Source of the DNA: Candidatus Moraniibacteriota bacterium
GTDB taxonomy: Bacteria > Patescibacteriota > Minisyncoccia > Moranbacterales > DUUL01
Direction: 5' to 3'
Length of the DNA: 64,000 bases
Assembly (NCBI GenBank): GCA_041583775.1
Contig: JBFHFF010000003.1
Location: 28,547-92,546 of the forward strand
The position numbers and the translations under genes were made by a program. This document shows positions 5,005-61,186 of the stretch, piece after piece (position 1 is the first letter of the stretch; the number at the start of each line of letters is the position of its first letter). The notes under the pieces were generated by a model, which saw only the letters and a list, made by a program, of their open reading frames with translations, had not been told where the DNA came from and made no database searches.

Positions 5005-5085
5005 CCTCGATTCCTCCTTGGAATTTTTTTAGTCAAAAATTTATTTCTTGACTATTTATTAAGGTACTTCATAAAAAGACATATG

Positions 5086-5130: not shown

Positions 5131-5318
5131 TTATTTAGAAATTTTTTATTTATTATATTGATAAAGAAGAGAGTTATTGATTTTTAAAAAAACACAATTA
5201 TTGATTTGTTAAAACGCTCGATTTAGGATATTATTAAAGAATGATAACATTTCTTTTTGCAAATGGTTTTGTTTTGTGTTGCTAAGAGAGAATGTTTTGT
5301 GTGAAATGAAAAAATGAA

Positions 5319-30176: not shown

Positions 30177-30192
30177 TCCTTGAAAGAAAAAA

Positions 30193-31845: not shown

Positions 31846-33617
31846 AAATTTCAGTAATAACCAAAAAAGAAACTTGGCAAACAAGGGAGTTGCAGAAAGA
31901 GTCTCGTAAAATGGGAATAGAGTTGGAGCTGAGAGATTTGGAGAATCTAAACCAGGGGATTGATGAGCTTGGGGATGTTGTGTTTTGGAGAGCAAATTCA
32001 ATGAATCTGTTCGATGGCGGAGCAGCTACAATTTCTCTTATCAAAAAGAGTGGTAGAATTATTGTGAGTCAAGGTATTTCAGAATTTCCATTTATTAGGA
32101 ACAAGCTTTTTCAGCAGAAATTTATAGAGGGTTTCAGTGGTATTAACACTATTGAAACATTTACTTTTGCAAACAAAGAAGATCTTGCCAGCTCTTTAGA
32201 AGAAGGAATTTTAAATTTTCCTTTTGTTCAAAAACCAGCAGTAGGCAGAAGAGGCGAGGGTGTTAAACTAATAGATTCTTGTGAATCTATGGAAAAACAA
32301 AGAGGTGAATATAGTAAAGTTGTTTATCAAAATTTTATAAAAAACAAAGGTGATTTTAGAGTGTTGGTATTGGGAGGAAAACCTCTCGGCGCAATAAAAA
32401 GGGTTGCAAGAAAAGGAAGCTTTTTAAATAATTTTTCTAAGGGAGGGACTTGCACCAACATTGATGATAAGGAAGTTAGAGAAATTTTGTTTGGAATTGC
32501 GATTAAAGTTGCTTCATATTTTAAATTAGCTTTTTGTGGTGTAGATATTATTTTTGATGAAAATAAAAAAAAGTATTTCTTCTTGGAAGTAAATACTCTC
32601 CCTCAATGGGAGGGTTTTCAGGGTGCTACAAATATTAATGTTTCTTTTGAGTTGCTGAATTTTTTTAAAGTTATGCACGAGAGGGGGAGAAGGGGTAGTA
32701 GAGAATTGGTATCCGAATATTATGAGGATAATTTAGACAAGCTTAGTTTTGAGAAGTCTTTTCATTATATTTCACGTTTGTTTCTTTGGGAAAACAGAAA
32801 AGAACTGTCAGTAAAATTAGAGTGTTTTAAGCAGGGTTTTATTGGTGAAACAGAAGATGATATTTTGGGAAATTTTAGAAAAACTTTTTCTGAAGTTGAA
32901 AAATATCAAGAAAGAGTGAAAAATGATATTTCAGCCAGAGAAAAATATATCAAAAAGTATCCTTTGCTGGGAGTTTATAATAGAATATTGTTTCAAGCGC
33001 TTATATCTAAAACAGTCTATAAAAAGGATGTGGCTGATATAGTTTCAAAAGTTTTGGACAGGGAACATGCTCTTAAAATGAGAGATGAACTCATGGGAGA
33101 TGAGGAGGCACTAAAATCTCTTTCTACGCATGCAATTAATTTTCTTTATTTTTCACAAGAGATTTTTGGTAAATTTTTTGAAGTCGATGTAAAAAAGTTA
33201 CACAGAATTTCAATTAGCGATTTTGGGAAGAGCGATGAGAGTTTGCTGCTTAAAATTTATTTCTTAACACACTGTATTATTGGTGAGTCGAGATTTTATT
33301 CTCAAGCAGTTAATGATGAAAAGGGTATTTATACAGAGATGATAAAAGCACTTGAAGAAATTATTAAAGAAAATTATTTTAGAGTTAGTTTGGACAATAA
33401 AATGGAGTTTCTTGTTTGTTCAAGAATGTGTGGCTTTAAGTCCTCAGTTGAGAAAATTTTGATTGCAGAGGCAGAAAGCTCTATGTCAGAAATTGGAAAC
33501 TATATTGTTGATATTTTAAATGCAAAAGGGGGGGATAAAAGAAAAAAAGATTTTTGGAACTCAGAACATAGAAATGTTTTATATTTAATGGCTACAAGTA
33601 AACTAAAAAAATGGTAA
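31842..33617 (+). CDS. RimK-family ATP-grasp ligase with a ~300-aa C-terminal all-helical extension of unknown function
   Basis: N-terminal ~290 aa are RimK-like (MKISVITKKETWQTRELQKESRKMGIELELRD...GDFRVLVLGGKPLGAIKRVARKGSFLNNFSKGGTCTNI...FFLEVNTLPQWEGF). The C-terminal 300 aa have no recognisable motif. Confidence 0.65.
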   Translation: MKISVITKKETWQTRELQKESRKMGIELELRDLENLNQGIDELGDVVFWRANSMNLFDGGAATISLIKKSGRIIVSQGISEFPFIRNKLFQQKFIEGFSGINTIETFTFANKEDLASSLEEGILNFPFVQKPAVGRRGEGVKLIDSCESMEKQRGEYSKVVYQNFIKNKGDFRVLVLGGKPLGAIKRVARKGSFLNNFSKGGTCTNIDDKEVREILFGIAIKVASYFKLAFCGVDIIFDENKKKYFFLEVNTLPQWEGFQGATNINVSFELLNFFKVMHERGRRGSRELVSEYYEDNLDKLSFEKSFHYISRLFLWENRKELSVKLECFKQGFIGETEDDILGNFRKTFSEVEKYQERVKNDISAREKYIKKYPLLGVYNRILFQALISKTVYKKDVADIVSKVLDREHALKMRDELMGDEEALKSLSTHAINFLYFSQEIFGKFFEVDVKKLHRISISDFGKSDESLLLKIYFLTHCIIGESRFYSQAVNDEKGIYTEMIKALEEIIKENYFRVSLDNKMEFLVCSRMCGFKSSVEKILIAEAESSMSEIGNYIVDILNAKGGDKRKKDFWNSEHRNVLYLMATSKLKKW

Positions 33618-34501
33618 AAAACTTCCTAATACTCTCGAGTGAGGGTGTGAAATTTGACTTTAGAAACAAAAGATTATCAGAAGAGATAGAAAAGAAAGGG
33701 TCCAGATTCGATATTGTTTTTGTTCAGGATCTTAGTATTTCTTGTGATAAAGTCGTTTTCAGAGATGAAGAAATAGATTTTTATAAATATGATTATATTA
33801 TCTCGGTAGGAACTCCTGATGCAAATCTTTACATAATTGATTTAGCAACTAAAAAAAATCCAAAAATTAAAGCCTGGCCAAATGTCCAGAACCATGGAAT
33901 GGTAGATAAATTTACAGAAGGAACGACTCTTGAGGCTATTGGAATCCCAATTCCGAAGACCACCCTCCTCGCTTTTTTGGAAGATGATTATATAAATAAA
34001 GAGGCTGAAATTGTCGGAGGTTTTCCTTGTGTGGCCAAAAAAGTTACAGGTGCTTCTGGAGATTATGTTGAGTTGGTTAATTCTTCTGATGAAATAAAAA
34101 AGTTTATTGAAAAACTTTCGGTTCCAAGCATAATTGGCAAAAGAAATATAATTTTACAAGAATATATAGAAGAGTCAAAGGGGACAGACTTTAGAGTTTA
34201 CTGTGTTGGAGATAAAGTTCTTGGTGCAATAAAAAGAACCGCCAAAGACGGCGGATTTAAAGCAAATGTCTCTTTGGGTGGAGATGCCGAAAAGGCTGAA
34301 ATTTCGAAAGAAATGAAGGAATATGCCCAAAAGATCATGCAAGCTAGTGGGCTTATGTTTGCTGGTATAGATTTTATCAAAAGCAATAGAGGTTATTTAG
34401 TTTTGGAGATAAATATATCAGCAAACTTTCAAGGATTTGAAACTGCAACCGGAGTTAATGTCGCAGGAGAAATTATTGAGAAATTCTTGGCATATGAATA
34501 G
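33611..34501 (+). CDS. RimK-family ATP-grasp ligase, paralog 3
   Basis: 296 aa, RimK-sized. ATP-grasp blocks GTDFRVYCVGDKVLGAIKRTAKDGGFKANVSLGG and GYLVLEINISANFQGFE. 7-nt overlap with the upstream gene. Confidence 0.75.
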   Translation: MVKNFLILSSEGVKFDFRNKRLSEEIEKKGSRFDIVFVQDLSISCDKVVFRDEEIDFYKYDYIISVGTPDANLYIIDLATKKNPKIKAWPNVQNHGMVDKFTEGTTLEAIGIPIPKTTLLAFLEDDYINKEAEIVGGFPCVAKKVTGASGDYVELVNSSDEIKKFIEKLSVPSIIGKRNIILQEYIEESKGTDFRVYCVGDKVLGAIKRTAKDGGFKANVSLGGDAEKAEISKEMKEYAQKIMQASGLMFAGIDFIKSNRGYLVLEINISANFQGFETATGVNVAGEIIEKFLAYE

Positions 34502-34529
34502 GCGTAATTATTATTCTTAAATAACACAC

Positions 34530-35423
34530 ATGAAGCATTTTTTAATTATATTCAAGGATAAAGTGAAAAGCGGATATAGAATTGATAGAGTTGTCACAGA
34601 GATAAAAAACGCTGGGCACGATGTTGATTTGGTTTGTAGTGTTGGAATGAAAATTACGGCTGCAGGCTTTTTGGTAGACAATAAAATTTTGAATTTGGCT
34701 AAGTACGATATCGTTTTTTCGATTGGCAATGGTGAACTACAGCATCAGCTTGCTACAGTTATTTCCTGTTATACCAAATCAGTTTTCTGGCCTGATAAAG
34801 AAGCTCTTTTTTATGATGATAAATTTAATGAAGCAGTTTTTATGGAGTCAATTGGTGTGCCTAAGCCGAAAACAATATTATTGACAAGTACGAAAAGTAA
34901 AGATATTGATGATTTGATTAAAGAGGTCGAGGGGTACCCATGCATTATTAAAAAAGCTATGGGCTCAGGAGGAGAATTTGTCGAGCTAGCGAATTCTAGC
35001 TCTGATGTATTGGATTTTTTAGATAAAGTGCCACATCCAAGTATAAGTGGAAAAAGAAACATTATTTTGCAAGAATACATAAAAGAATCAAAAGGCACTG
35101 ATTTTAGGGTTTTTTGTGTGGGAGAAAAAGTTCTCGGTACAATTAAAAGGACATCCAGAAACGGTGGATTTAAGGCAAATGTTTCTTTAGGAGGAAAAGC
35201 AGAGAAAGTTGAAATTTCTAAAGAGATGAAGGCATATGCTAAAAAGATTATGAAAGAGAGTAAACTTCTGATTGCTGGGATTGATTTCATAAAAAGCAAT
35301 AGAGGTTATTTAGTTTTGGAGATAAATATATCACCCGGTATTGAAGGTTTTGAAAAGGCAACCGGAGTTAATGTAGCTAAAAAGATTGTTTTAGGACTTC
35401 TCGAAAGAACACAACAAAAATAG
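34530..35423 (+). CDS. RimK-family ATP-grasp ligase, paralog 4 (recent tandem duplicate of 33611..34501)
   Basis: 297 aa. The C-terminal half is largely identical to paralog 3 (GTDFRVFCVGEKVLGTIKRTSRNGGFKANVSLGGKAEKVEISKEMKAYAKKIM...IDFIKSNRGYLVLEINIS). Confidence 0.75.
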   Translation: MKHFLIIFKDKVKSGYRIDRVVTEIKNAGHDVDLVCSVGMKITAAGFLVDNKILNLAKYDIVFSIGNGELQHQLATVISCYTKSVFWPDKEALFYDDKFNEAVFMESIGVPKPKTILLTSTKSKDIDDLIKEVEGYPCIIKKAMGSGGEFVELANSSSDVLDFLDKVPHPSISGKRNIILQEYIKESKGTDFRVFCVGEKVLGTIKRTSRNGGFKANVSLGGKAEKVEISKEMKAYAKKIMKESKLLIAGIDFIKSNRGYLVLEINISPGIEGFEKATGVNVAKKIVLGLLERTQQK

Positions 35424-43221: not shown

Positions 43222-44751
43222 ATGTTTGAAAATATTAAAATTCCAAACAACCCAAATCAAGAATTGGGGAGGAATAGAAGACGCGAAGAATTTTCGAGAA
43301 GCCAAAAAAATGAAGGTGAGAGTCTGTTGGACAGAAGAAGTCTTTTGAAAGCAGGACTTGCGATGGCCACAGTTTATGGCATAGGAGATTCATTGGTTGG
43401 TTTATTAGAGAGAGAAAGCGCTGAGGATGAAAAGGATGACAAAGAAGAAGTCTTCAGGGAAAGTTCGGAAGGTTTGCCAACAGAGGAACAATTGAAAATT
43501 GAAGATGATGACAAAATAGCAATTGGCGACACAATCAAACATCAACTTGAAAAGGGCGGTGAAATAAAATTAGATATGTCAACAAAAAAAGCTCTTTATG
43601 TCAGTTGGATGCAAAAATATAGAAAGAGGCCAGAGGGTTGGCCGGAAATGGATAAATGGACAGGAAGTAACCATTTAGGTCTTTTGCAGTCAATGGAAAA
43701 GATGCAACCCTGGATTGGATTAATAAAGGAGGAATTTGCAAAAATTGGTGTTCCTGAAAAATATGCATATCTTGCAATTCCAGAGTCTCATTTTGATATT
43801 AGTGCAAATTCAAGAGCGAGGGCTGGAGGACCATATCAATTTACAGCAGGAACAGCAGAAGGTTACGGGTTAGCAGTTGGTGGTGGAATTGATGAGCGTC
43901 GTGATCCAATTGAGAGTGCAAGGGCTTGTGCTGAGCATTTAAAATATAGTTATGAAAGATTTAATAATGATTGGGACTTGGCATTCTCCGATTATAATGG
44001 TGGGTTTACCCAAGAATATGAGAAATTTCGTCCTAAAAAAGAAGATAGAAACTATCAAGATTATCTTGCTTGGCGAGAAGGAAGATTGAACGAGTTTGTT
44101 TCAAGGGATCATTATGAACATGAGGTCACGAGTAATGACGGTAATCTTGGCAATATTGCAGGATACTATGGATTATCAACAGATGAATTGTTGAATATAA
44201 ACGGATTAACAAATGATCAGATTAAAATTGGGCAAGTATTGAAACTTCCTGATACAGTCTCTGTTAAACTTTTTAAATTGCGTGATTCACTTGAAAATTT
44301 AAATTACCCAGAAAAGTTTTATGCAGTTTTGGATGTTATTGAGGAAGAAGAATTGGAAAAAAAATTTCCTGCTAGGCCATTAAGTTTTTATGAAAAAAGA
44401 ATCCCTAAGGTTTCTACGGAGGAATTTTCGCATATTATTAAAAAGGGGGAGGGTTTGTTTGGGATAGCTAGAAAAATCCAAGCAAGAACAATGGAAAGAG
44501 GTTCGAAAGTAAAATTTTCAGCTTCTAAAATTCAAAAGTTAATTGAAACGCAAAATGGGATTTTTAATTCTAGAACAATTCGTCCGGGGAAGGAATTAAA
44601 AGTTGAACTTCCCCTAGAAGAAGGAATTTCGCTTGCAAAAATTGCAGTTACAAATAAAATTCCAATAGAGAAATTGATTGAAATTAATCCATCAATTATT
44701 GATAGAAATATCATTTTGGAGGAGGGAATTAAAATTAGGATTCCAAGATAA
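43222..44751 (+). CDS. Lytic transglycosylase (SLT domain) with C-terminal LysM repeats and a twin-arginine-like N-terminal signal
   Basis: SLT catalytic region (AIPESHFDISANSRARAGGPYQFTAGTAEGYGL). At least two LysM-like segments (HIIKKGEGLFGIARKI...; ...ISLAKIAVTNKIPIEKLIEINP). An RRSLLKAGLAMATVYG motif before a hydrophobic stretch. Confidence 0.65.
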   Translation: MFENIKIPNNPNQELGRNRRREEFSRSQKNEGESLLDRRSLLKAGLAMATVYGIGDSLVGLLERESAEDEKDDKEEVFRESSEGLPTEEQLKIEDDDKIAIGDTIKHQLEKGGEIKLDMSTKKALYVSWMQKYRKRPEGWPEMDKWTGSNHLGLLQSMEKMQPWIGLIKEEFAKIGVPEKYAYLAIPESHFDISANSRARAGGPYQFTAGTAEGYGLAVGGGIDERRDPIESARACAEHLKYSYERFNNDWDLAFSDYNGGFTQEYEKFRPKKEDRNYQDYLAWREGRLNEFVSRDHYEHEVTSNDGNLGNIAGYYGLSTDELLNINGLTNDQIKIGQVLKLPDTVSVKLFKLRDSLENLNYPEKFYAVLDVIEEEELEKKFPARPLSFYEKRIPKVSTEEFSHIIKKGEGLFGIARKIQARTMERGSKVKFSASKIQKLIETQNGIFNSRTIRPGKELKVELPLEEGISLAKIAVTNKIPIEKLIEINPSIIDRNIILEEGIKIRIPR

Positions 44752-44775
44752 TGGATGTTGCATTGTTTGAGTCAA

Positions 44776-44805
44776 AAAAAGAAGCCCAGTGCTTCTTTTT
44801 TTACT
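44776..44805. terminator. Bidirectional rho-independent terminator (AAAAAAAGAAGC-ccagt-GCTTCTTTTTTT)
   Basis: Inverted repeat with A/T runs on both sides, between convergent genes 43222..44751 (+) and 44832..45233 (-). Confidence 0.7.
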
Positions 44806-44831
44806 CAAACTAGATTATTAATTATTTTGAC

Positions 44832-45233
44832 TTATCGACTTTCAATAAACCCAAAATGTTTCAATGTTGGAATTATGTTTGGAGCGATCTCTTTATTTTC
44901 TAAATTGTTAAAATCGATCCATTCCCATTTCAAAATCTCCTCTCCGGGAACTATCTCTCCTACTCTTTTTGAAAGAAAATGAACAAGGATGATATCGAAA
45001 ACTCCTTCGGGCGTTTCTTTCTTTGTGTGTAGAAAAAAAGGTTTTTCATCGAGAATCTCGATGTCAATTCCCACTTCTTCTTTTGCTCTTCGGATTGCAG
45101 TTTCTATTAGATCTTCATTTTCTTTTATTTTTCCTCCGCAAAATTTCCAAAATTTATCGTCTCCATGTTGATTTAGGAGAACTTTTTCATTTTCAACGAT
45201 TACTGGTCCTGATGCAATGATTATTTTTTGCAT
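44832..45233 (-). CDS. Nudix hydrolase
   Basis: Nudix box GGKIKENEDLIETAIRRAKEEVGI (GX5EX7REUXEEXGU). Confidence 0.75.
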   Translation of the reverse strand: MQKIIIASGPVIVENEKVLLNQHGDDKFWKFCGGKIKENEDLIETAIRRAKEEVGIDIEILDEKPFFLHTKKETPEGVFDIILVHFLSKRVGEIVPGEEILKWEWIDFNNLENKEIAPNIIPTLKHFGFIESR

Positions 45234-45278
45234 AGATTTATTTTTAATTGTTAAAAAATTTTAAAACCACAATGAAAA

Positions 45279-46874
45279 TCACTTAAGTTTTTTTGTCATA
45301 TATTCATCCTCTAGTGTGTATCCAAATTTTTTATAATATTCTCTTACGCCAACTCCTGAAATAATGGCGATTTTTTTAAAGGAGAATTCTTCTTTGGCTA
45401 TTTTTTCTGCTTCTAATAGAAGTTTTTTGCCAAGCCCAATATGTTGAGGGGAGTGTATATCCTTTTCATCTATTTTAGCAAGTTTTCCAAAAGTATGCAC
45501 CTCTCTAATGAGCGCACTTTTAGAAAGCGCGGGGATTATGTTTCCGAGTTGGCTATTTATAGATGGAATTCTGAGCCTTAGCATTGCATACAACTTCATT
45601 TTGTCAGGAGAAACATATTGTAGAAAGATTTCTTTCCCTCCAGAGGCATCGTAGTCAATCCTGTCTAGAATAATATTATCTTCTGTTGTAAAGCTAGAAC
45701 GGACCTCGCGACAACGAATGCATTCGCAATGAACCCCTTCTTGTTGCAAGATTTGACGCATATTAGAAATATTTGGACCAGCGATGATTGATTCCTCGGG
45801 AATATCGCGAATAAGGCGTGTTATTCTTACGAATTGGGGTATAGTGGCTTTAATTTTCTTAAGAAGTTCCTTGTTCTGGTTGTTTGTAAGAGGTTTATAT
45901 TTACCTTGTTTCCAAAGCTTGAACAATTCAGAATTGTCAGTGACCACACAAGGATAAATTTTCATCAAGTCTGGCATAAATCTTTCGTCTGTGAAAAGTT
46001 TCTTGAACATTTCTAGGTCTTTTTTTGGTGTACTGCCATACATGCCAGGCATCATATGATAGTTAATTTTAAAACCAGCATCCTTGAGGAGTGCTGTAGC
46101 ATCCACTGTTGCTGTAATTGAATGTCCTCGTTTGTTTTTCTTTAAGATTTCATCAAATATGTTTTGGACTCCAATCTCTACTCTTGTTGCTCCAAGTTTT
46201 CTGAATTTTAAAATTTCCTTTGGAGTTATGTAATCCTGCCTTGTTTCAAGAGTTAATCCAATTATGCGGTTTTTTGTTTTTTCGTTTCTCTCTTTTTCTT
46301 TTTCTAATGAAGTTCTTTTTTTATTTTCTAAAAGATTTTCAGGGAAATCATTAGCAGCGCGAAAACATTCTTTAACAAACCAATATTGATATTGTGGGGT
46401 AAAATATGAAAAAGTTCCTCCCATCACAATCATTTCAAGTTTTTCTGTTGAATGTCCATTGAGTTGTAATGCTGTCATTCTGGAATGTACTTGTTTGTAT
46501 GGATGAAAATCTGTTTTTATTGCACGCATCACAGCTGGCTCATTAGAGAGATAGCTTTTGGGCATATTTTCTTCATCTGGGCAATAAATGCATTTTCCAG
46601 GACATTTACTTGGTTTCGTTAAAACAGCAATAACCGCGACCCCTGAGAGAGTACGAATTTTTTTTGTGATAAGAAGTTTTTCGAGTTTTTCGTTTGAATT
46701 AATTTCATTGTTCTTAATCATCTCAAAATATACTTTGCTGATATCAGCATTCTTGATGAAAGAAGTTTTTTCTTTGATAGCGAAATCTTTTTTAATTCTT
46801 TCCAAAGACTCAGCCGTTGAGAGTTGAGATGACAGGGCTTTTAAAATAAACTTTTTTATGGTAGATTTTCTCAT
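45279..46874 (-). CDS. Elp3-like protein (radical SAM + GNAT acetyltransferase; tRNA U34 carboxymethyl-modification enzyme family)
   Basis: Radical-SAM cysteine cluster (KCPGKCIYCPDE), a central Elp3-specific region, and a C-terminal GNAT fold (IGLGKKLLLEAEKIAKEE...ISGVGVREYYKKFGY). 531 aa, a typical Elp3 length. Confidence 0.75.
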   Translation of the reverse strand: MRKSTIKKFILKALSSQLSTAESLERIKKDFAIKEKTSFIKNADISKVYFEMIKNNEINSNEKLEKLLITKKIRTLSGVAVIAVLTKPSKCPGKCIYCPDEENMPKSYLSNEPAVMRAIKTDFHPYKQVHSRMTALQLNGHSTEKLEMIVMGGTFSYFTPQYQYWFVKECFRAANDFPENLLENKKRTSLEKEKERNEKTKNRIIGLTLETRQDYITPKEILKFRKLGATRVEIGVQNIFDEILKKNKRGHSITATVDATALLKDAGFKINYHMMPGMYGSTPKKDLEMFKKLFTDERFMPDLMKIYPCVVTDNSELFKLWKQGKYKPLTNNQNKELLKKIKATIPQFVRITRLIRDIPEESIIAGPNISNMRQILQQEGVHCECIRCREVRSSFTTEDNIILDRIDYDASGGKEIFLQYVSPDKMKLYAMLRLRIPSINSQLGNIIPALSKSALIREVHTFGKLAKIDEKDIHSPQHIGLGKKLLLEAEKIAKEEFSFKKIAIISGVGVREYYKKFGYTLEDEYMTKKLK

Positions 46875-46942
46875 AGAGATTGCAAAGGGAGATGAATTAT
46901 TTTTTACTTTCTTTATTATTCAACTTATTAAGACAAATGTAA

Positions 46943-47635
46943 ATGATGGGGCATTATGAAATTCGTAAAGAGTTAAAGGAATTCTATAATCAAATAGCTG
47001 AAAATTTTTCTAGTACTAGGAAATATTGGTGGAGAGATCTTAACTTTATCAAAAAATATCTAAAGAGTGAAGGAAAGATTTTGGATTTTGGTTGTGGTAA
47101 CGGAAGGCTTGTTGATTTTTTGGAGGGAACTGAGCTTGATTATGTTGGGGTAGATACTTCCCATAAACTAATAGAAATAGCAAGAAAAGAATATCCATCA
47201 AAATCTTTTGTGAAAATTGAAGATGAGAAAAGGTTACCATTCGATGATAACGAGTTTGATATGGTTTTTTCAATTGCAGTTTTTCATCATTTTACTCCTA
47301 AAATGACCGACAACGCTTTAATGGAAATCAACAGGGTTATAAAAAAAGATGGGATTTTGATTTTGACGATTTGGAATCTTTGGAATCCCAAGTACCTTAA
47401 CTTTTTATTTAGAAGCTTTTTTTTGGGAAAGTTTGATCTAAGTGCTAAAATATCATTTAAATATAAAAATCAAACAAAGTGGAGATTTTGCTATTGGTGG
47501 ACCAAAAAAAGAATTACCAAGAAAGTCAAAAGTTTTGGGTTTAGAATTATTGATAGTGGGTTTACCTTTGGTGAAAAAAAGAAAACCAAAAAGAAATTTA
47601 AACGAAATATTTTTGTTGTGGCTGAAAAGAAATAG
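46943..47635 (+). CDS. Class I SAM-dependent methyltransferase, Trm9/ALKBH8-MTase-like
   Basis: SAM motif I (ILDFGCGNGRL), post-I (YVGVDTS), and a FDMVFSIAVFHHF block matching the Trm9 family SIAV(I/F)HHF signature. Divergently transcribed from the Elp3 gene. Confidence 0.55.
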   Translation: MMGHYEIRKELKEFYNQIAENFSSTRKYWWRDLNFIKKYLKSEGKILDFGCGNGRLVDFLEGTELDYVGVDTSHKLIEIARKEYPSKSFVKIEDEKRLPFDDNEFDMVFSIAVFHHFTPKMTDNALMEINRVIKKDGILILTIWNLWNPKYLNFLFRSFFLGKFDLSAKISFKYKNQTKWRFCYWWTKKRITKKVKSFGFRIIDSGFTFGEKKKTKKKFKRNIFVVAEKK

Positions 47636-47823
47636 TTTTGAGGAATTTTTTCGAAAATAATTGCAAAAAATAAAAGAGGTTTATAGATTTCACAATATTG
47701 TTATTTGTGATATAATTAATTAAGAAAGTGTTAACAGGAAAACAGTTGTTCGTGACTGGTTCTTTGTGTGATGAAAAACACACCCAAAAATATAAATAAA
47801 AAGAATCTATTATAAGCTAAAAA

Positions 47824-49146
47824 GTGCAAATAAAGAAGCCCAAAGTATTAATGTTTGGTTGGGAATTCCCACCGTATAGTGTGGGTGGTCTTGGTGTTGC
47901 TTGTTATGGCCTAACTAAGAGTATGACAAAGCTTGGTATGGAAATCACCTTTGTTGTTCCGAAAGCTCCGAAAAACGCTAAAAACCACTTCCTAAATTTG
48001 TTAGTCGCTGATAGGATAGCGATAGGGATGAGTGATGTGGAGGAGATCGAGGGAATTAATTTGCAAAAAGTTGATTCTTTGTTAATGCCCTATATGGACG
48101 CTAAAAAATATTCTTCATTGGTTGAATATTTGAAAAAAAGAGGTGGAACAATTGAAAATTTTATTTATTCAAGTGAGTCTAAGGACTTTGATTCTAAAAA
48201 TCAATATGGCCTAAACCTATATGAAGAAGTTTGGCGATATGCAAATAAAGCTGCTATAATAGCAAGAAAGGAGAATTTTGATGTAATTCATGTGCATGAC
48301 TGGATGACTTTTCAAGCAGGAATAATTGCAAAAGAAATTAGTGGAAAACCCCTTGTTATTCACATTCACAATACAGCTTTTGATAGAAGCGGGGGGCATC
48401 CTGGACGAAGAGAATTTGAAATTGAAAAAGAAGGTTTCGAGAAAGCCGACAGAATCATTGCAATTAGTAATTATGTAAAAAATAAATTGCTAAAACATTA
48501 CGGAGTGGATCCTAACAAAATTATTGTTGCACACAATGGAATTGACGCGGAGGATTATTGTTTTAAAAACTCAGAAAGAAATATTAATAACAAAATAGTT
48601 TTGTATGCAGGAAGAGTTACTTTACAAAAAGGACCAGAATACTTTGTAAAAGCAGCTGCAAAAATTTGTCAAACAAGAGATGACATCACATTTATTTTAG
48701 CTGGTGGTGGTGATATGTTAATCAGTATGATTGAACTCGCTGCCCATTTAAAAATTTCCGATAAATTTGTTTTTACTGATTGGTATAGCAAACAAGAGGG
48801 GGAGAAATTAATGAATATGGCTGATGTATTTGTAATGCCTTCAGTATCAGAACCATTTGGACTCGTTCCTCTTGAGGCAATGTTGCAACGCACGCCAACG
48901 ATAATCTCAAAGCAGTCTGGAGTAAGTGAGGTCTTGGAAAATTCTTTAAAAGTTGATTTTTGGGATATAGATGAGCTGGCAAATAAAATAGCATCAGTGT
49001 TGGATTATGATTCTCTTAGAAGTCATCTTGTTGAAATGGGAGAGAAAGAGGCAAAATCAATGACATGGGACAAGGCCGCTTTGGAATGTAAAAGAGTTTT
49101 TGAAAAATTGATTTATGAACACAAGATGTCAGAAAATTGTTACTAA
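47824..49146 (+). CDS. Glycogen/alpha-glucan synthase-like glycosyltransferase (short archaeal-type GT-B)
   Basis: N-terminal FPPYSVGGLGVACYGL, analogous to the K-T-G-G-L donor motif of glycogen synthases. C-terminal EPFGLVPLEAM. 440 aa. Followed by GH57 and GH15 genes. Confidence 0.55.
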   Translation: MQIKKPKVLMFGWEFPPYSVGGLGVACYGLTKSMTKLGMEITFVVPKAPKNAKNHFLNLLVADRIAIGMSDVEEIEGINLQKVDSLLMPYMDAKKYSSLVEYLKKRGGTIENFIYSSESKDFDSKNQYGLNLYEEVWRYANKAAIIARKENFDVIHVHDWMTFQAGIIAKEISGKPLVIHIHNTAFDRSGGHPGRREFEIEKEGFEKADRIIAISNYVKNKLLKHYGVDPNKIIVAHNGIDAEDYCFKNSERNINNKIVLYAGRVTLQKGPEYFVKAAAKICQTRDDITFILAGGGDMLISMIELAAHLKISDKFVFTDWYSKQEGEKLMNMADVFVMPSVSEPFGLVPLEAMLQRTPTIISKQSGVSEVLENSLKVDFWDIDELANKIASVLDYDSLRSHLVEMGEKEAKSMTWDKAALECKRVFEKLIYEHKMSENCY

Positions 49147-49167
49147 CTAATTTTACCAAGAGATAAG

Positions 49168-50379
49168 ATGCCAAATATTTGTTTTTATTTTCAAGTTCAT
49201 CAACCATATAGAGTTAAAAACTATAAAGTTTTTGACATTGGAAAGGATCATGAGTATTTTAATGATAACTCTGAAGGTGATTTGAATAATAGCTGGATTA
49301 TTCAAAAAGTTGCTAGAAAATGTTATTTACCAACAAATAAACTTCTATTAGAGTTACTGAAAAAACACCCTGAATTTAGGATAAGCTTTTCCTTTTCCGG
49401 TGTTTATCTCGATCAATTGGAACGATTTGCTCCAGCAGTTCTAAGTTCATTTCAAGACTTAGTTGCAACTGGAAGGGCTGAGGTCTTGAGTGAAACCTAT
49501 TATCATTCATTGGCATTTTTATATTCAAAAGATGAATTTGTTTTCCAAGTGGAAAAGCACAAGGATAAGGTGGCAAAGTTATTTGGTGTTAAGCCAACAG
49601 TTTTTCGTAATACCGAATTGATATATAACAATGATTTAGCGAAAAAAGTCGAATCAATGGGCTATAAGGGGGTTATAGCCGAGGGTGCGGACAAGGTATT
49701 GTCATGGAAGAGCCCAAATTTTCTTTATGAGGCCGCAGGATGTGATAATTTGAAGTTATTGTTGAAAAATTACAAATTATCTGATGATATAGCATTTCGT
49801 TTTTCGGATCACAATTGGGCAGAGCATCCATTGTCAGCAAAGACTTTTGCTGATTGGGTTTCAAATCACAACGGGGAAGGAGAGCTTATAAATTTATTTA
49901 TGGATTATGAGACATTTGGAGAGCATCAATGGGAGGATTCTGGGATATTTGATTTTCTTCGGCATCTTCCAGACTTTGTTTTACAAAATCCTTCAAATGG
50001 ATTCATAACTCCAAGCGAAGCCATTGAAACTCTTGAAAGTAGAGGCAAAATAGATTTTTTTGATTTTATTTCATGGGCTGATGAAGAGAGGGATCTTTCT
50101 GCTTGGCGCTCAAATGTTTTACAGACTGATGCCCTAGAAAAGGTTTATGCAATTGAAAAAGATGTTTTGAATACTAAAGATGAAAAAATAATTGATGATT
50201 GGAGGAAGCTGCAAACTTCTGACCATTTCTATTATATGTGTACAAAATATTTTGCCGATGGTGATGTTCATAAATATTTTAATCCATACGAAACTCCGCA
50301 TGATGCATTTATTTCTTTTATGAACGCTTTAAGTGATATGAAAATTAGAGTTAATAGGCACAATGTGGCAAATGTTTAA
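49168..50379 (+). CDS. Glycoside hydrolase family 57 protein (alpha-glucan-acting)
   Basis: The N-terminal FYFQVHQPYR block is the GH57 hallmark. (beta/alpha)7-barrel catalytic region. 403 aa. Confidence 0.6.
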   Translation: MPNICFYFQVHQPYRVKNYKVFDIGKDHEYFNDNSEGDLNNSWIIQKVARKCYLPTNKLLLELLKKHPEFRISFSFSGVYLDQLERFAPAVLSSFQDLVATGRAEVLSETYYHSLAFLYSKDEFVFQVEKHKDKVAKLFGVKPTVFRNTELIYNNDLAKKVESMGYKGVIAEGADKVLSWKSPNFLYEAAGCDNLKLLLKNYKLSDDIAFRFSDHNWAEHPLSAKTFADWVSNHNGEGELINLFMDYETFGEHQWEDSGIFDFLRHLPDFVLQNPSNGFITPSEAIETLESRGKIDFFDFISWADEERDLSAWRSNVLQTDALEKVYAIEKDVLNTKDEKIIDDWRKLQTSDHFYYMCTKYFADGDVHKYFNPYETPHDAFISFMNALSDMKIRVNRHNVANV

Positions 50380-50441
50380 AGAATAAATAAAAAAGTTAAA
50401 ATTGAATCAAATCAAAATATTTAAATTTTATTAAAAACAAA

Positions 50442-50948
50442 ATGAGTTTATTTAAAAGACTTATTGTTCAGTCAGAAGAAGATGAAAATGGGGACAATAA
50501 TAATGATGTAGTGACAAAAGAAGATATTAAGGAGGTGTCAACGGAAGATGTTGTAGTAAAAGAGCAAGCCATCCAGAAAGAGCTAATAGAAGAAGATACA
50601 GTGGCTCAAGAAAATAAAATGGAGAAGTTATTGCGGGGCAATGATAGTGAAGAAAAAGAAGAGGAGATGGAGCAAAAAGATGTTGTCAAAAAAATAAGAG
50701 TTTTCGATACATCCCCGAATGAAGATTTTTGGTTTCACTATGGACCAGTTGTAAAAAATCTTGCCGAACTAAGGGATGCTTTTTTGCAGATTGATGATAA
50801 TCTTTATAATTATCACGCAAACGGAAATGAAAACGATTTTGAAGTTTGGATTAAAGATGTTTTTGGATATGAAGAGTTAGCTAAAAAAATCGGGAGTGCT
50901 AAGACTAGAAAAAAAGCTCATAAGATACTAGAAGATGCAGTGGAATAA
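50442..50948 (+). CDS. Hypothetical acidic protein (Glu/Asp-rich N-terminus, conserved C-terminal ~70 aa)
   Basis: Open 168-aa frame between the GH57 and GH15 genes. No recognisable motif. Confidence 0.35.
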   Translation: MSLFKRLIVQSEEDENGDNNNDVVTKEDIKEVSTEDVVVKEQAIQKELIEEDTVAQENKMEKLLRGNDSEEKEEEMEQKDVVKKIRVFDTSPNEDFWFHYGPVVKNLAELRDAFLQIDDNLYNYHANGNENDFEVWIKDVFGYEELAKKIGSAKTRKKAHKILEDAVE

Positions 50949-51023
50949 GAATTGGAAGGAAAGTATATTTTAGCTAATTGGTTTTTAAAAAGATGATAAA
51001 ATAAGTTTTGAGACAAAAGTAAA

Positions 51024-52985
51024 ATGCCAAAATCTTTAGTACTAGGAAACGGAAACATGCTTTTATGCTTTGACAACAAAGCGCGTGTTTGTGACTTTTA
51101 TTATCACTATGTTGGCTTGGAAAATCATGCTGGCAGTGGTTGTGTCCATAGAATTGGAATTATGATTGATGGTCAGTTTTCATGGATTGAAGAGTCTGCT
51201 TGGAAAGTTGAGATGGCGTATCAAAAAGACTCTTTAGTTTCAAAAGTTAGTATGAATAATGAGCAACTTGGAATCAGACTTAATTTTAGAGATGCGGTGT
51301 ATAATGAAAAGTGTATCTTTCTAAGAAAGGTTACTGTGGAAAATTTATGGGATAACAAGAGACAAATAAAAATATTTTTTCATCAACAATTTAGAATCTA
51401 TGATACTGAGAGAAGAGATACTGGTTATTATGATCCTGATAGAAAAGTAATAACTCACTATGAGGGGCGAAGAGTTTTTGTTGTTGGTGGAAGACAAGGG
51501 CAAAAGAGTTTTGATGATTATTGTGTTGGTAATTATGGCATTGAAGGCAAGATAGGGACCTGGAAAGATGCTGAAGATGGTATATTAGAAAAAAACCCAA
51601 TTGAGCATGGGCCAGTTGACTCTGTTATTGCCTTCACTTTCGAAGTTGAGGGGAATGGTAGAAAAACTGTTAATTATTGGATTGCTGCAGCTAAAGTATT
51701 AGCAGAAGCTAGGAATTTACATGAGTATGTTCTGGCAAGAACGCCCAATCATTTATTGGAATCAACAGAAGATTATTGGAGGGCTTGGGTGAATAAAAAT
51801 AAGATAGATTTTAAAAATCTGGATGAGGAATCAATTGATTTATTTAAAAGATCTTTATTGGTAATAAGTACACACTCAGGTAATGAAGGTGGGATAGTGG
51901 CATCCGCTGATTCAGATATGTTGCAATACGGGCGTGATACATATGCATATGTATGGCCAAGAGATGGAGCTTTTGTTGCCATGTCATTAATTCAAACTAA
52001 ACATTTTTCAATTGCCAGAAAGTTTTTTGAATTTTGTAATGATGTAATTAGTGAGGATGGTTATTTCTTTCATAAATATCGAAGTGATAAATCAATCGGA
52101 AGTTCTTGGCATCCTTGGTCTAGAGACGGGAAAAAACAACTTGCAATTCAAGAAGATGAAACTGCTTTAATATTGTATTCGCTTTGGGAGTATTATGAGG
52201 CAAGTTTAAATATCGAATTTATTGAAAGTGTTTATAACTCATTGATTAAAAAAGCAGCTGAGTTTATGTATCACTATCGAGATAAAAGAACTGGCTTGCC
52301 AAAAGAGAGTTATGATTTATGGGAGCAAGATTACGGGATATCAACATTTACTTCCAGTACAGTGTATGGGGGTCTTATGGCAGCAAGTAAGTTTGCTGAA
52401 GTGCTTGGTAAAGAGGAGGACGCAAAGAAATATAGTCACGAAGCAGAGGAAATAAAAACTCTTATTATAAAATATTTGCATAACAGCAATAATGGTTATT
52501 TTTACAAGAGAATTACTTCGAGTAAAGAGGATTTTGGTTTTGATGACACGATTGATATCAGTAGTTTTTTCGGTTTGTTTTATTTTGGTATAATTGACAT
52601 TGACGATCCGATGCTTGGTGATGCTTTTGATGTCGTTGAAAGAGAACTTTTTTGTAAAACTAAAATTGGTGGAGTGATGAGATATGTTGGTGATAAATAT
52701 CACCAAGTTCATAATGATATGACCGGAAATCCATGGATTATTACAACTCTTTGGGTTGCTCAATATCGAATAAAGAAGGCAAAAAATATTAATGATTTAA
52801 ATGAAGTTAAAAATATTTTTAAATGGGTTTGTGATAGAATGACAACTGCAGGTATTTTGCCGGAACAGGTAAATTCAGACACGGGAGAGCATCTTTCTGC
52901 GGCACCGCTTACATGGAGCCATTCTGAATATGTGACAACAGTTATTCAATATTTAAACAAAAGAGAAGAAATCGAGAATCATTAG
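51024..52985 (+). CDS. GH15 family glucoamylase/glucodextranase-like enzyme (archaeal-type, with N-terminal beta-sandwich domain)
   Basis: (alpha/alpha)6-barrel region with YVWPRDGAFVAMSL and LWEQDYG-type acid/base blocks typical of GH15. N-terminal GNGNMLLCFD domain. 653 aa. Confidence 0.6.
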   Translation: MPKSLVLGNGNMLLCFDNKARVCDFYYHYVGLENHAGSGCVHRIGIMIDGQFSWIEESAWKVEMAYQKDSLVSKVSMNNEQLGIRLNFRDAVYNEKCIFLRKVTVENLWDNKRQIKIFFHQQFRIYDTERRDTGYYDPDRKVITHYEGRRVFVVGGRQGQKSFDDYCVGNYGIEGKIGTWKDAEDGILEKNPIEHGPVDSVIAFTFEVEGNGRKTVNYWIAAAKVLAEARNLHEYVLARTPNHLLESTEDYWRAWVNKNKIDFKNLDEESIDLFKRSLLVISTHSGNEGGIVASADSDMLQYGRDTYAYVWPRDGAFVAMSLIQTKHFSIARKFFEFCNDVISEDGYFFHKYRSDKSIGSSWHPWSRDGKKQLAIQEDETALILYSLWEYYEASLNIEFIESVYNSLIKKAAEFMYHYRDKRTGLPKESYDLWEQDYGISTFTSSTVYGGLMAASKFAEVLGKEEDAKKYSHEAEEIKTLIIKYLHNSNNGYFYKRITSSKEDFGFDDTIDISSFFGLFYFGIIDIDDPMLGDAFDVVERELFCKTKIGGVMRYVGDKYHQVHNDMTGNPWIITTLWVAQYRIKKAKNINDLNEVKNIFKWVCDRMTTAGILPEQVNSDTGEHLSAAPLTWSHSEYVTTVIQYLNKREEIENH

Positions 52986-58072: not shown

Positions 58073-61000
58073 ATGAAAAAAGGAAGAATTGTTCCACAAT
58101 ATAATTTTGCTAAAATCGAGAAAAAATGGCAAAAATCTTGGCAAGAGAAAAAAGTTTATGAGGTTGATATAAATAACGCCAAAAAACCTTTTTATAATTT
58201 GATGATGTTTCCGTATCCTTCAGCAGAAGGGTTGCATGTTGGAGGAGTTTATACTTATACGGGAGTTGATGCTTTTGGAAGATTTAAAAGAATGCAAGGG
58301 TATGATGTTTTTGAGCCAATGGGGTTAGATGGTTTTGGAATTCATAGTGAAAATTATGCAATGAAAATTGGTGAACACATTGATGATGTTTCAAAGCGAA
58401 CAGAGAAAAACTTTTATCGACAACTTTCTTCAATTGGAAATATGTTTGATTGGTCAAGAACAGTTGAGACCTATAAACCAGAGTACTACCGTTGGACGCA
58501 ATGGTTGTTTTTGCAACTTTTTAAAAAAGGATTGGCATATCAAAAGAAAGCCAAAGTGAATTGGTGTCCTTCTTGTAAAACTGTTCTTTCTGATGAACAA
58601 GTGATTCAAGGGCAATGTGAGCGATGTGACAGTTTTGTAGAAAAAAGAGAATTAAAACAATGGTTTTTTCGTATCACAAAATATGCAGATCGACTTTTGA
58701 AAAATTTAGATTGGATTGATTGGCCAGAAGATGTAAAAACTAATCAAAGAAATTGGATTGGTAAAAGCGAGGGGGCAAATATCAAGTTTCAAGTTGAAGT
58801 TGCTGGTGAGAACAAGGGTGAATTGGAAGTTTTTACAACTCGTCCAGATACGCTTTTCGGTGCGACTTATATGGTTTTAGCTCCAGAACACGAATTAGTT
58901 CAAAGTGCAAAAGAGGTTATTGAAAATTGGAGTGAGGTGGATAAATATGTCAAAAAAGCAATTAGCAAATCGGAGCAGGAAAGAAAAAATGATGAGAAAA
59001 CTAAAACAGGGGTTGAGTTGAAAGGAATCTCGGCTATCAACCCTGCAAGTGGGGAAAAAATCCCTGTTTGGGTTGCTGACTATGTCTTGGCAGGATATGG
59101 AACAGGAGCAATTATGGCTGTTCCAGCACATGATGCTCGTGATTTTGAATTTGCAAAGAAATTTGGTATTGAAGTTAAATGTGTTGTTGAACCTAAAGAT
59201 TCCAAAACAGGACTTATTTTTAGACTAGGTACTCCAAAAGAGGATCCACAAGAAAAATTAGAAAAAATTTATAAAGGAGAGGAATGTTATGAGGGACTTG
59301 GTGTTTCAATGAATTCAGGATTTTTAAATGGAAAATCAACAACCGAAGCGAAAGCCGAAATGTTGGAATGGTTGGAGAAAAAAAATGTTGGTAAAAAATC
59401 AATTGACTTTAAACTTCGAGATTGGTGTGTTTCTCGTCAGAGATATTGGGGACCTCCAATTCCGATTGTGTGGTGCAAAGAATGTGCGAAGAATCAAAAC
59501 AAACGAAAAGTTTTGATGATTCACGGATTTGAAGGCGTTGGAGACGGAAATTGGTTTCCTCACCTAAAAAAAGAGCTTGAAGAAAAAGGTTGTGAGGTCT
59601 TCACTCCAACATTAGAAACTAATACCAAGCCAGATTTAGAACAATGGATGAAACAATTAAAGCCATATTTGGACAAGTTGGACGAAAATAGTGTTATTAT
59701 TGGTCACAGCCTTGGTTCAAAGGCAATTTTGCATTTATTGGAAGGAAACAAACAAAAAGTTGATAAAATTTTCTTAGTCGCTTCCGCAATTGGCAATCTA
59801 AAGAGAGATTGGAAATGGTTGGCAGATCGATGGAAAAATTCAGATGTAGAGTCTTTGCGCAAATTCTGGGAAGCAGAATTGGATTGGAGCAAGATCAATC
59901 CAAAAGTGAATGAATCTTTTGCAATCGTTTCAAAAGATGATCTATATGTTGATGTTAGTAATTATGAAGCGATGGAGCTTGATGGTTTGAATGTTGAAAT
60001 TTGGGATGGACATAGACACTTTCAACAAACAGAAAATGCTGCATTAAAAGATTTTATTTTCGAAAACCTATTTAGTAATAGCGAAGCGGTTGCAGTTCCT
60101 GTTCCAGACAATCAGTTGCCAGTAAAATTGCCGCCAATGAAAGATTTTCTCCCTGAAGGAACCGGGAAAGGTCCTTTGGCAAAGAATGCTGAGTTTGTGA
60201 AAACAACTTGCCCTGTTTGCGGGGCTGACGCAGAAAGAGAAACTGATGTTTCGGATCCTTTTGTGGATTCTTCTTGGTATTTTTTTAGATATCCGTCAAC
60301 AGAGTTTGATGATGTTGCTTTTGATAAAGAAAGGACTAAGAAATGGCTTCCCGTAGACAGCTATATTGGTGGCAAAGAACACACAGTTTTGCATCTTTTG
60401 TATTCTAGATTTATAACTATGGTGCTTAAGGATTCGGGATATATTGATTTTGATGAGCCATATAAAAAATTCTTTGGGCACGGATTGATTACTAAAGAAG
60501 GTGCTAAAATGTCAAAATCAAAAGGAAATGTTGTAAATCCAGATGTTATGATTGAAAAATATGGGGCTGATACAACAAGAATGTATTTGAGATTTTTAGG
60601 AGACTTTTCTCAGGGAGGGGATTGGCGAGATTCTGGAATAGAAGGTATGAATAGATTTACGAAAAGACTTTGGTCACTCTTTTTTGAACTAGAAGGAAAT
60701 GGAAAAGGGGTTGATGATTTTTCAATGATAGATAAAACAATTAAAGTTGTTGGCGAGGACTTGGAAAAACTTTCATTTAATACTGCCGTTGCTCGTTTGA
60801 TGGAGTTTGTGAATTGGGTAAAAGAGAATAAAAATCAATTCAATGAAAAACAAGTTAAAAAAATCAAAGAAACGATGGCACTTATATTTGCCCCGATGAT
60901 GCCACATATAGCAGAGGAATTTTGGCAAGAAATTGGAGGGGAAAGCTTTGTTTGTGAGCAAAGATGGCCAAACTATGATAAGGACAAAATCATTGATAAT

Positions 61001-61186
61001 GAGATTGAACTTGTGATTCAGGTAAATGGAAAACTTCGAGATAAAATCAAAACACCACGAGATATTACTGAAAATGAAGCAAAAAAAATATCTTTGGAAA
61101 GCGAAAATATACAGAAATTTATCAATGGGAAAGAAGTAAGAAAAGTAATATATGTGCCAGGAAAGCTTGTGAATATAGTTATTTAA
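58073..61186 (+). CDS. leuS: Leucyl-tRNA synthetase carrying an inserted ~200-aa YdeN/RBBP9-type alpha/beta serine hydrolase domain (about 59486..60094), with HIGH motif variant HVGG
   Basis: LeuRS blocks throughout: FPYPSAEGLHVGG, the first zinc knuckle CPSCKT...CERCDS, the CP1 editing domain with TTRPDT and AVPAHDARDFEFA, then RDWCVSRQRYWGPPIPIV, VPDNQLPVKLPP, GAKMSKSKGN and the anticodon-binding C-terminus. After WCKEC lies a complete Ser-hydrolase fold (VLMIHGFEGVGDGNWFPHL...VIIGHSLGS...IFLVASA...SKDDLYVDV...WDGHRHFQ) before CPVCGA. Confidence 0.85.
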   Translation: MKKGRIVPQYNFAKIEKKWQKSWQEKKVYEVDINNAKKPFYNLMMFPYPSAEGLHVGGVYTYTGVDAFGRFKRMQGYDVFEPMGLDGFGIHSENYAMKIGEHIDDVSKRTEKNFYRQLSSIGNMFDWSRTVETYKPEYYRWTQWLFLQLFKKGLAYQKKAKVNWCPSCKTVLSDEQVIQGQCERCDSFVEKRELKQWFFRITKYADRLLKNLDWIDWPEDVKTNQRNWIGKSEGANIKFQVEVAGENKGELEVFTTRPDTLFGATYMVLAPEHELVQSAKEVIENWSEVDKYVKKAISKSEQERKNDEKTKTGVELKGISAINPASGEKIPVWVADYVLAGYGTGAIMAVPAHDARDFEFAKKFGIEVKCVVEPKDSKTGLIFRLGTPKEDPQEKLEKIYKGEECYEGLGVSMNSGFLNGKSTTEAKAEMLEWLEKKNVGKKSIDFKLRDWCVSRQRYWGPPIPIVWCKECAKNQNKRKVLMIHGFEGVGDGNWFPHLKKELEEKGCEVFTPTLETNTKPDLEQWMKQLKPYLDKLDENSVIIGHSLGSKAILHLLEGNKQKVDKIFLVASAIGNLKRDWKWLADRWKNSDVESLRKFWEAELDWSKINPKVNESFAIVSKDDLYVDVSNYEAMELDGLNVEIWDGHRHFQQTENAALKDFIFENLFSNSEAVAVPVPDNQLPVKLPPMKDFLPEGTGKGPLAKNAEFVKTTCPVCGADAERETDVSDPFVDSSWYFFRYPSTEFDDVAFDKERTKKWLPVDSYIGGKEHTVLHLLYSRFITMVLKDSGYIDFDEPYKKFFGHGLITKEGAKMSKSKGNVVNPDVMIEKYGADTTRMYLRFLGDFSQGGDWRDSGIEGMNRFTKRLWSLFFELEGNGKGVDDFSMIDKTIKVVGEDLEKLSFNTAVARLMEFVNWVKENKNQFNEKQVKKIKETMALIFAPMMPHIAEEFWQEIGGESFVCEQRWPNYDKDKIIDNEIELVIQVNGKLRDKIKTPRDITENEAKKISLESENIQKFINGKEVRKVIYVPGKLVNIVI

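Follow-up and report, generated by a model that had tools for sequence, protein, structure and literature searches.

In a stretch of 64,000 nucleotides (nt) from a Candidatus Moraniibacteriota bacterium (contig JBFHFF010000003.1, positions 28,547 to 92,546; hereafter the window), two head-to-head genes probably encode a two-step pathway for modification of the tRNA wobble uridine (U34), the first being a gene for Elp3 and the second a gene for a Trm9-type methyltransferase. The Elp3 gene (45279..46874, minus strand, ATG start) encodes a radical S-adenosylmethionine (radical-SAM) and GNAT/KAT enzyme of 531 amino acids (aa), a predicted tRNA U34 C5-carboxymethylase forming 5-carboxymethyluridine (cm5U34). 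The methyltransferase gene (46943..47635, plus strand, ATG start) encodes a class I SAM-dependent enzyme of 230 aa, predicted to be a tRNA (carboxymethyluridine34-5-O)-methyltransferase that converts cm5U to 5-methoxycarbonylmethyluridine (mcm5U). As read directly from the sequence, the divergent genes are separated by an intergenic spacer of 68 nt (46875..46942), which presumably houses the start regions of both. Both open reading frames (ORFs) are taken to be real, since such length is far beyond chance in a sequence of 34% G+C, the value for the window; each protein moreover has hundreds of homologs. An earlier interpretation of the window made from its letters alone (the sequence-only reading) had placed the two ORFs at these positions and on these strands with the same gap, and had called the gap a divergent promoter region. 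The divergent layout and the 68 nt stand, whereas the promoter is suggested by position only: in a promoter and terminator scan of 44700..47900, sigma-70-like matches numbered 14 versus 11.6 ± 3.6 in shuffled sequence, and because these counts are not above chance we claim no specific promoter.

The pair is best described as a conserved, divergently transcribed module of Patescibacteria (the candidate phyla radiation [CPR]) that would act as follows. Elp3 alone, as in archaea, would form a 5'-deoxyadenosyl radical from SAM at its [4Fe-4S] cluster and would place a carboxymethyl group on C5 of U34 with KAT-bound acetyl-CoA, giving cm5U34. The methyltransferase would then bind SAM and methyl-esterify the cm5U carboxylate to give mcm5U34, which may be thiolated further to 5-methoxycarbonylmethyl-2-thiouridine (mcm5s2U). 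Evidence for the second step comes from gene linkage, from a similarity that is specific to Trm9, and from conservation in the active site. With both steps predicted from sequence comparison, this route from Elp3 through a Trm9-type enzyme to mcm5U34 is likely the overall explanation of the locus. Precedents for each reaction exist in archaea: the Elp3 of Methanocaldococcus infernus (MinElp3) makes cm5U in vitro (PMC7663514), methylation of yeast tRNAs by HvoTrm9-Trm112 of Haloferax volcanii is cm5U dependent in vitro, and in vivo the presence of mcm5U requires HvoTrm9 as well as HvoTrm112 (PMC6144793).

The first enzyme matched the NCBIfam model TIGR01211 end to end (569.9 bits, cutoff 350; residues 12 to 530 on model positions 5 to 522 of 522) as well as solved Elp3 structures, which bears out the full-length Elp3 homolog proposed earlier. 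In the PDB, MinElp3 (6iaz) was the best match (1e-125), followed by the Elp3 of Dehalococcoides mccartyi (DmcElp3, 5l7j; 5e-118) and by the yeast and human proteins (about 1e-91), the scores against MinElp3 and DmcElp3 being similar. Pfam recognized Radical_SAM and Radical_SAM_C; the KAT domain gave no separate Pfam acetyltransferase match, and the whole domain aligned to MinElp3 through residue 530. Among 81 CPR Elp3 orthologs, the radical-SAM cysteines C91/C95/C98 (DNA about 46581..46604), spaced as in the canonical CX3CX2C, were invariant, as were the Zn-site cysteines C383/C385/C388 in the interdomain linker and, in the KAT domain, the acetyl-CoA motif QHxGxG (Q477, H478, G480, G482) together with Y513-Y514. 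A Zn-binding cysteine triad is a feature of the prokaryotic Elp3 linker (PMC6367351). In all 81 orthologs, the radical-SAM core is also preceded by about 76 residues of basic character (18 lysine plus arginine versus 9 aspartate plus glutamate); this N-terminal extension is required for tRNA binding in MinElp3 and completely absent from DmcElp3 (PMC6367351). By these sequence features, the CPR protein is a full-length, archaeal-type Elp3, and its predicted activity, cm5U34 formation, is inferred from family membership and the intact catalytic motifs.

Assignment of the methyltransferase to the Trm9 family

The sequence-only reading had likened the methyltransferase to Trm9, a proposal that the Pfam and NCBIfam scans could not decide because neither library holds a Trm9-specific model. 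Pfam returned only the generic Methyltransf_11, Methyltransf_25, and Methyltransf_12 (Methyltransf_11, 5.7e-22). Two curated candidates were rejected: UbiE/MenG (TIGR01934) reached 51.8 bits versus a cutoff of 158.35, with Pfam Ubie_methyltran at 28.6 bits over the core only, and the DVU_1556 family (NF045667), the best NCBIfam match, reached 69.8 bits versus a cutoff of 155. With all NCBIfam scores far under their cutoffs, grouping with UbiE, RlmA, or another curated family, which would have spoken against Trm9, was not seen. In the sources, members of the family are mostly named 'UbiE' or 'class I SAM-dependent methyltransferase'; the Joint Genome Institute (JGI) pipeline names a few of them TRM9 or ALKBH8 and most of them UbiE.

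When Trm9 was set against the generic families by other means, it was favored by a profile search of the PDB, by profile-profile alignment, by a reciprocal search with fungal Trm9, and by the essential residues. A profile of 46 family members searched against the PDB ranked Trm9 of Yarrowia (YlTrm9, 5cm2_Z) first (5.7e-23; profile positions 26 to 229); this alignment spans the protein from the N-terminal TRxxW block to the C terminus, and most of the other PDB matches cover the Rossmann core, those to PH0226 and 3sm3 being longer. The reference Trm9 sequences of these comparisons were all fungal. With an alignment of 30 fungal Trm9 proteins, taken from a set in which many are named tRNA (carboxymethyluridine(34)-5-O)-methyltransferase, hhalign gave 100% probability and an E value of 1.8e-39 over 208 columns, starting from the N-terminal (V/F)YxxIAxxFSxTR helix. 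The FDMVFSIAVFHHF block on which the proposal had been based is present in the protein and aligns with the fungal Trm9 consensus FDFAISIAVIHHL.

For the reciprocal search, a hidden Markov model (HMM) of fungal Trm9 only was run against 1,753 ORFs of at least 100 aa from the window and 80 Elp3 loci (defined below). It matched 70 ORFs, namely, the window methyltransferase (84.8 bits, E value of 4.8e-25) and a single ORF at each of 69 loci, near full length and at 58 to 111 bits, and no other ORF among the 1,753 at an E value of ≤10. The matches that were inspected were all methyltransferase-sized ORFs opposite in strand to Elp3, mostly a few hundred nucleotides away. As a calibration, non-Trm9 methyltransferases of the PDB scored ≤43 bits against the same kind of fungal profile (PH0226, 38 bits), over the core only. 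The AlphaFold model of the protein (predicted local distance difference test score, 94.9) has a Rossmann-like strand order.

Eight residues of Saccharomyces cerevisiae Trm9 (ScTrm9), R29, D72, H116, W145, W168, R241, Y243, and N271, have alanine mutants that are zymocin resistant, with activity lost or crippled (PMC4678810). They correspond to R26, D71, H116, W144, F172, R181, C183, and N222 of the window protein, in which H115 likewise corresponds to ScTrm9 H115. Seven of the eight are kept, six being identical and invariant in all 46 family members and the W168 column always holding F or W. The SAM motif LDFGCGNGR and D71, the counterpart of the SAM-ribose-binding acidic residue D72, are invariant in the family. 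Columns for K31, R122, Q149, and D270, whose alanine mutants are wild-type-like in the zymocin assay, vary freely; two further wild-type-like positions do not vary, the H115 column being invariantly H and the E148 column holding W in 44 of 46 members. According to kinetics of ScTrm9, R29, H115, and Y243 serve tRNA binding and catalysis and not SAM binding, and in a model of Trm9, R241 is close enough to the cm5U carboxylate for a hydrogen bond (PMC4678810). We consider it likely that the window methyltransferase is of the Trm9 type and serves as the partner of Elp3, with cm5U34 as its substrate.

Conservation of the gene pair in Patescibacteria

Conservation of the arrangement was assessed in loci found with patterns from the window Elp3 alone, in one genome per species. 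The scan confirmed 253 relatives, of which the best 80 were taken as loci, so that the earlier description of bacterial Elp3 as sporadic undersells its occurrence: Elp3 is widespread in Patescibacteria. Almost all of the best 80 loci are from that group (Moraniibacteriota, Parcubacteria/Paceibacterota, Azam-, Portnoy-, and Buchananbacteria). The closest relatives of both window proteins come from Moraniibacteriota or Parcubacteria metagenome-assembled genomes (MAGs), for example, locus L001, with 84% identity for Elp3 and 81% for the methyltransferase.

Six of the 80 loci have less than 900 nt of upstream sequence and were not assessable. Among the remaining 74, a methyltransferase lies upstream of Elp3, divergent and within 500 nt, in 56 (76%), with a spacing of 20 to 338 nt (median, 136 nt); it is upstream and divergent at 0.8 to 2.7 kb in 5 loci, and a copy of the same family lies downstream of Elp3 in 6. 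Across the 56 paired loci, identity to the window proteins ranges from 29 to 81% for the methyltransferase and from 44 to 84% for Elp3, and the remaining neighbors of the pair change from locus to locus. Look-ups that started from eight members of the methyltransferase family gave the same picture: seven were head to head with a Radical_SAM and Radical_SAM_C protein of 514 to 540 aa, the gaps ranging from a two-base overlap of start codons up to 68 nt. By both counts, the gene pair is conserved in related genomes; a lack of such conservation had been named by the sequence-only reading as counting against it. Pairwise distances of Elp3 and the methyltransferase in 70 loci were correlated (Mantel r = 0.84, reached by 0 of 2,000 permutations), which is expected of co-inheritance as a unit, although any two vertically inherited genes would correlate too. 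Clustering of Elp3 and Trm9 genes is known in Sulfolobus (PMC2584109).

Several MAGs with the same gene arrangement (L007, L008, L013, L040, L051, L077, and others) are labeled 'uncultured Bdellovibrionales', 'Candidatus Saccharibacteria', or 'Candidatus Udaeobacter', and their Elp3 proteins are 44 to 60% identical to the Moraniibacteriota protein. It may be that these labels are unreliable or that the module extends beyond Parcubacteria-type lineages.

Counterevidence and alternative readings

A number of observations weigh against a Trm9-type module. To our knowledge, bacterial tRNA has not been found to contain mcm5U or cm5U. Direct evidence for derivatives of cm5U34 (xcm5U34) is lacking even for Dehalococcoides (PMC7663514), and the bacterial methyltransferase family is known from sequences alone. 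The window methyltransferase and YlTrm9 are 26% identical; in the profile search of the PDB, the uncharacterised PH0226 came a close second to YlTrm9 (81.1 versus 84.8 bits), and when the AlphaFold model was compared with the PDB by Foldseek, 5cm2_Z ranked first by a negligible lead over 3sm3 (6.8e-15 versus 8.2e-15). Given so small a margin over other small class I methyltransferases, the Foldseek result is consistent with Trm9 but not discriminating. Linkage is not universal, since no methyltransferase is found within 10 kb of Elp3 in 7 of the 74 assessable loci and one family member (P0099) does not adjoin Elp3. The essential Y243 is not kept, being C183 in the window protein and C (18 members), H (18 members), I, L, V, or, once, Y in the family. 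Finally, no Trm112-like ORF was found in the 64-kb window or in the 10-kb flanks of the 80 Elp3 loci, a weak negative obtained with a regular expression (CxxC plus [I/V]Px[L/M]) in small ORFs and by tblastn with an Escherichia coli YcaR sequence.

This last point matters because all characterised Trm9 enzymes (yeast Trm9, human ALKBH8, and that of H. volcanii) need Trm112 (PMC4678810, PMC6144793). In YlTrm9, Trm112 shields a hydrophobic patch formed by V59, F78, V102, A110, P112, and F116, the partnership being made also via a beta-zipper. In an alignment at 26% identity, V59 is replaced by K or R and F78 by D or E in nearly all members of the CPR family, and P112 is mostly polar, whereas V102 (L, I, or V), A110, and F116 (F) are kept apolar; compared with Trm9, two to three of the six hydrophobic contact positions are thus charged or polar. 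Since no Trm112 was found nearby and the surface that would bind it is partly charged, the methyltransferase may work alone, and independence from Trm112 is the weakest point of the proposed mechanism. Alternatively, the module may make cm5U-derived modifications with a methyltransferase that needs an unlinked Trm112-like activator, i.e., a canonical Trm9-Trm112 holoenzyme. We hold this to be possible but doubtful. Besides the requirement in every characterised Trm9, the existence of Trm112 orthologues in bacteria (PMC6144793) speaks for it, as do the interface positions that are still hydrophobic and the reach of the search, which took in 64 kb of this genome and, elsewhere, flanks of 10 kb; the lack of a Trm112-like ORF in all of that sequence and the charged or polar residues at V59, F78, and P112, which fit a solvent-exposed rather than a partner-buried surface, speak against it.

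It is improbable that the methyltransferase acts with Elp3 on the same tRNA position by a chemistry unlike that of Trm9, yielding a product other than mcm5U, for example, by methylation elsewhere on the xcm5 side chain or on the base or by use of a different Elp3 product. The replacement of Y243 by Cys or His throughout the family would fit such a reaction, as would the segment from W144 to R181, which is unlike its fungal Trm9 counterpart. In H. volcanii without Trm9, cm5U is turned into unidentified derivatives (PMC6144793), which means that archaeal-type xcm5U chemistry is not fully mapped. Set against this are the invariant counterparts of R29 (R26), R241 (R181), H116, and W145, of which R241 is placed near the cm5U carboxylate and R29 takes part in tRNA binding and catalysis (PMC4678810). 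Loss of Y243 need not alter the reaction, because the ScTrm9 Y243A mutant retains reduced but measurable activity (PMC4678810).

That the methyltransferase is a generic class I enzyme of UbiE-like type for a small molecule or another substrate, beside Elp3 by gene order or a shared promoter region only, is very improbable, for although Pfam and NCBIfam offer generic models only, most members bear generic names, and the fold search cannot separate Trm9 from other small methyltransferases, scores for curated families all lie far under cutoffs, adjacency persists where identity has fallen to about 29% for the methyltransferase and 44% for Elp3 and other neighbors have changed, the fungal Trm9 HMM separates the family (58 to 111 bits) from other solved methyltransferases (≤43 bits), and the conserved residues extend beyond those for SAM binding to those for tRNA and cm5U binding.

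Genomic surroundings and relation to known systems

A gene for a NUDIX hydrolase (44832..45233, minus strand, 133 aa; Pfam NUDIX, 6.7e-17) lies 45 nt downstream of the Elp3 gene on the same strand. In all-against-all clustering of the flanking ORFs of the 80 Elp3 loci, no universally conserved third neighbor was found, and only two genes recurred, the remaining clusters being antisense shadow ORFs within the Elp3 or methyltransferase gene. The first is NUDIX; of 74 assessable loci, 30 have it within 500 nt of Elp3 in the same position and on the same strand, and 37 have it within about 2 kb. Its conservation is unusually high (42 to 84% identity), and in a Moraniibacteriota-like clade it often accompanies the module as a third gene. 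No specific NCBIfam model reached its cutoff for this protein, and the closest structures are Dcp2 and MutT-type Nudix domains; it may handle a by-product or cofactor of Elp3 or may be unrelated housecleaning. The second is a gene for an RlmN-like radical-SAM methyltransferase (2-methyladenosine [m2A] in rRNA and tRNA), immediately 3' of Elp3 and convergent with it in 21 of 80 loci (for example, L008, 12197..13249 on the minus strand; L088, 1332..2375; L090, 1388..2437; L091, 719..1762), its position beside Elp3 indicating a local cluster of RNA-modification genes in those lineages. At L088, a 311-aa protein with weak matches to ThiI (PP-loop) and to the RNA-binding NFACT-R_2 is encoded at 4675..5610 on the plus strand, overlapping the 3' end of the Trm9-like gene; from these matches, it may be an enzyme that thiolates tRNA, which would be in keeping with an mcm5s2U pathway, and it was seen at this one locus only.

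The genes surrounding the pair in the window are bacterial (LepA, SLT/LysM transglycosylase, GroEL, PBP1, MurJ, FtsEX, release factor [RF], leucyl-tRNA synthetase [LeuRS], and DXS). The identical methyltransferase is recorded on four contigs, the longest being 142 kb, and the three that were read, from three sequencing runs, have the same neighbors. The only tRNA gene in the window is tRNA-Thr(CGU), and no MnmE, MnmG, or MnmA gene was found within the 64 kb. Directly 3' of the methyltransferase gene, a glycogen/starch-type cluster (47824..52985, plus strand) encodes a GT5/GT4 synthase, a GH57 enzyme, and a GH15 glucoamylase-like protein and includes an acidic 168-aa protein without a family match (50442..50948). 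The LeuRS (58073..61186, plus strand, 1,037 aa) has an unusual architecture, with a serine-hydrolase/alpha-beta-hydrolase domain (Pfam Ser_hydrolase, 6.6e-16; residues 480 to 630) inserted between the editing domain and the anticodon-binding domain. A run of genes at 28103..35423 on the plus strand (a 7TM_transglut membrane protein, a sugar-transfer-associated ATP-grasp protein, three RimK-like ATP-grasp ligases, and a 550-aa protein without a Pfam or NCBIfam match) resembles a peptide- or polyglutamate-type ligase cluster.

Wobble modifications of the mcm5U type and Trm9 have been regarded as eukaryotic and, since 2018, archaeal. A specialist review of 2020 confined bacterial Elp3 to one clade, Dehalococcoides, and noted the lack of evidence for bacterial xcm5U derivatives (PMC7663514), a paper of 2026 described Elp3 as conserved in 'numerous bacteria' and was no more specific, and a full-text search of the literature found no paper linking Elp3 with Patescibacteria or the CPR or describing a bacterial Trm9. 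Both proteins belong to known families with known predicted chemistry, and what is new is the context, a bacterial radiation: archaeal-type, full-length Elp3 is widespread in Patescibacteria and tightly coupled to a putative Trm9 orthologue with a conserved active site, which predicts a complete two-step pathway for the whole radiation. By this prediction, mcm5U, never demonstrated in bacteria, is probably made in this CPR bacterium. Both enzymes come here as small single-subunit versions, probably soluble, which would offer a route to Elp3 and Trm9 chemistry without Elongator or Trm112, and the pathway is of interest for the tuning of decoding in streamlined symbionts and for its possible exchange between CPR bacteria and archaea. 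The assignment would also correct the names 'UbiE' and 'class I SAM-dependent methyltransferase' that several hundred proteins bear by systematic misannotation. Only tentatively do we extend it to the proposal that much of the CPR decodes with mcm5U or mcm5s2U by means of a compact Elp3 and a Trm112-independent Trm9, often with NUDIX, in place of MnmE/MnmG; if true, this would make the module the first mcm5U system known from bacteria and its methyltransferase the first Trm9 that does without Trm112.

Of the systems known to act on the same position, the bacterial MnmE/MnmG pathway (with MnmC), which makes xnm5U34, is the most distant in chemistry. It shares with the proposed route the target, C5 of U34, and the purpose, tuning of wobble decoding (PMC7663514), whereas its enzymes, its cofactors (GTP, FAD, methylene-tetrahydrofolate, and glycine), and its products, 5-carboxymethylaminomethyluridine (cmnm5U) and 5-methylaminomethyluridine (mnm5U), are unrelated to those of the Elp3/Trm9 route. 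DmcElp3 (PDB 5L7J), the sole characterised bacterial Elp3, has the two-domain core and the Zn-binding cysteines in common with the CPR Elp3 (PMC6367351); however, it is without the N-terminal extension that the CPR protein has and shows very weak activity (PMC6367351, PMC7663514), and the DmcElp3 literature cited here makes no mention of a partner methyltransferase. Compared with MinElp3 (PDB 6IAZ/6IA8), the CPR protein has the same full-length architecture (basic N-terminal extension, radical-SAM domain, Zn-Cys linker, and KAT domain) and, likewise, would be a stand-alone enzyme, with no other Elongator subunits expected; the two differ in host, the CPR host being bacterial, and in the spacing of the radical-SAM cysteines, which is CX3CX2C in the CPR protein and CX4CX2C in MinElp3 (a one-residue alignment gap). 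With Trm9 and the ALKBH8 methyltransferase domain (yeast Trm9-Trm112, PDB 5CM2; H. volcanii HVO_1032), the CPR methyltransferase shares the class I fold, a similar length, the (V/F)YxxIAxxFSxTRxxxW N-terminal helix, the GCGNG(K/R) SAM motif, the acidic residue equivalent to D72, the SIAVxHH, VW(A/N)L, and R(Y/F)xHxF blocks, and the C-terminal N. Unlike Trm9, the CPR enzyme is bacterial, is about 25% identical, has Cys or His in place of Y243 and a different segment from W144 to R181, and carries no AlkB or RRM fusion.

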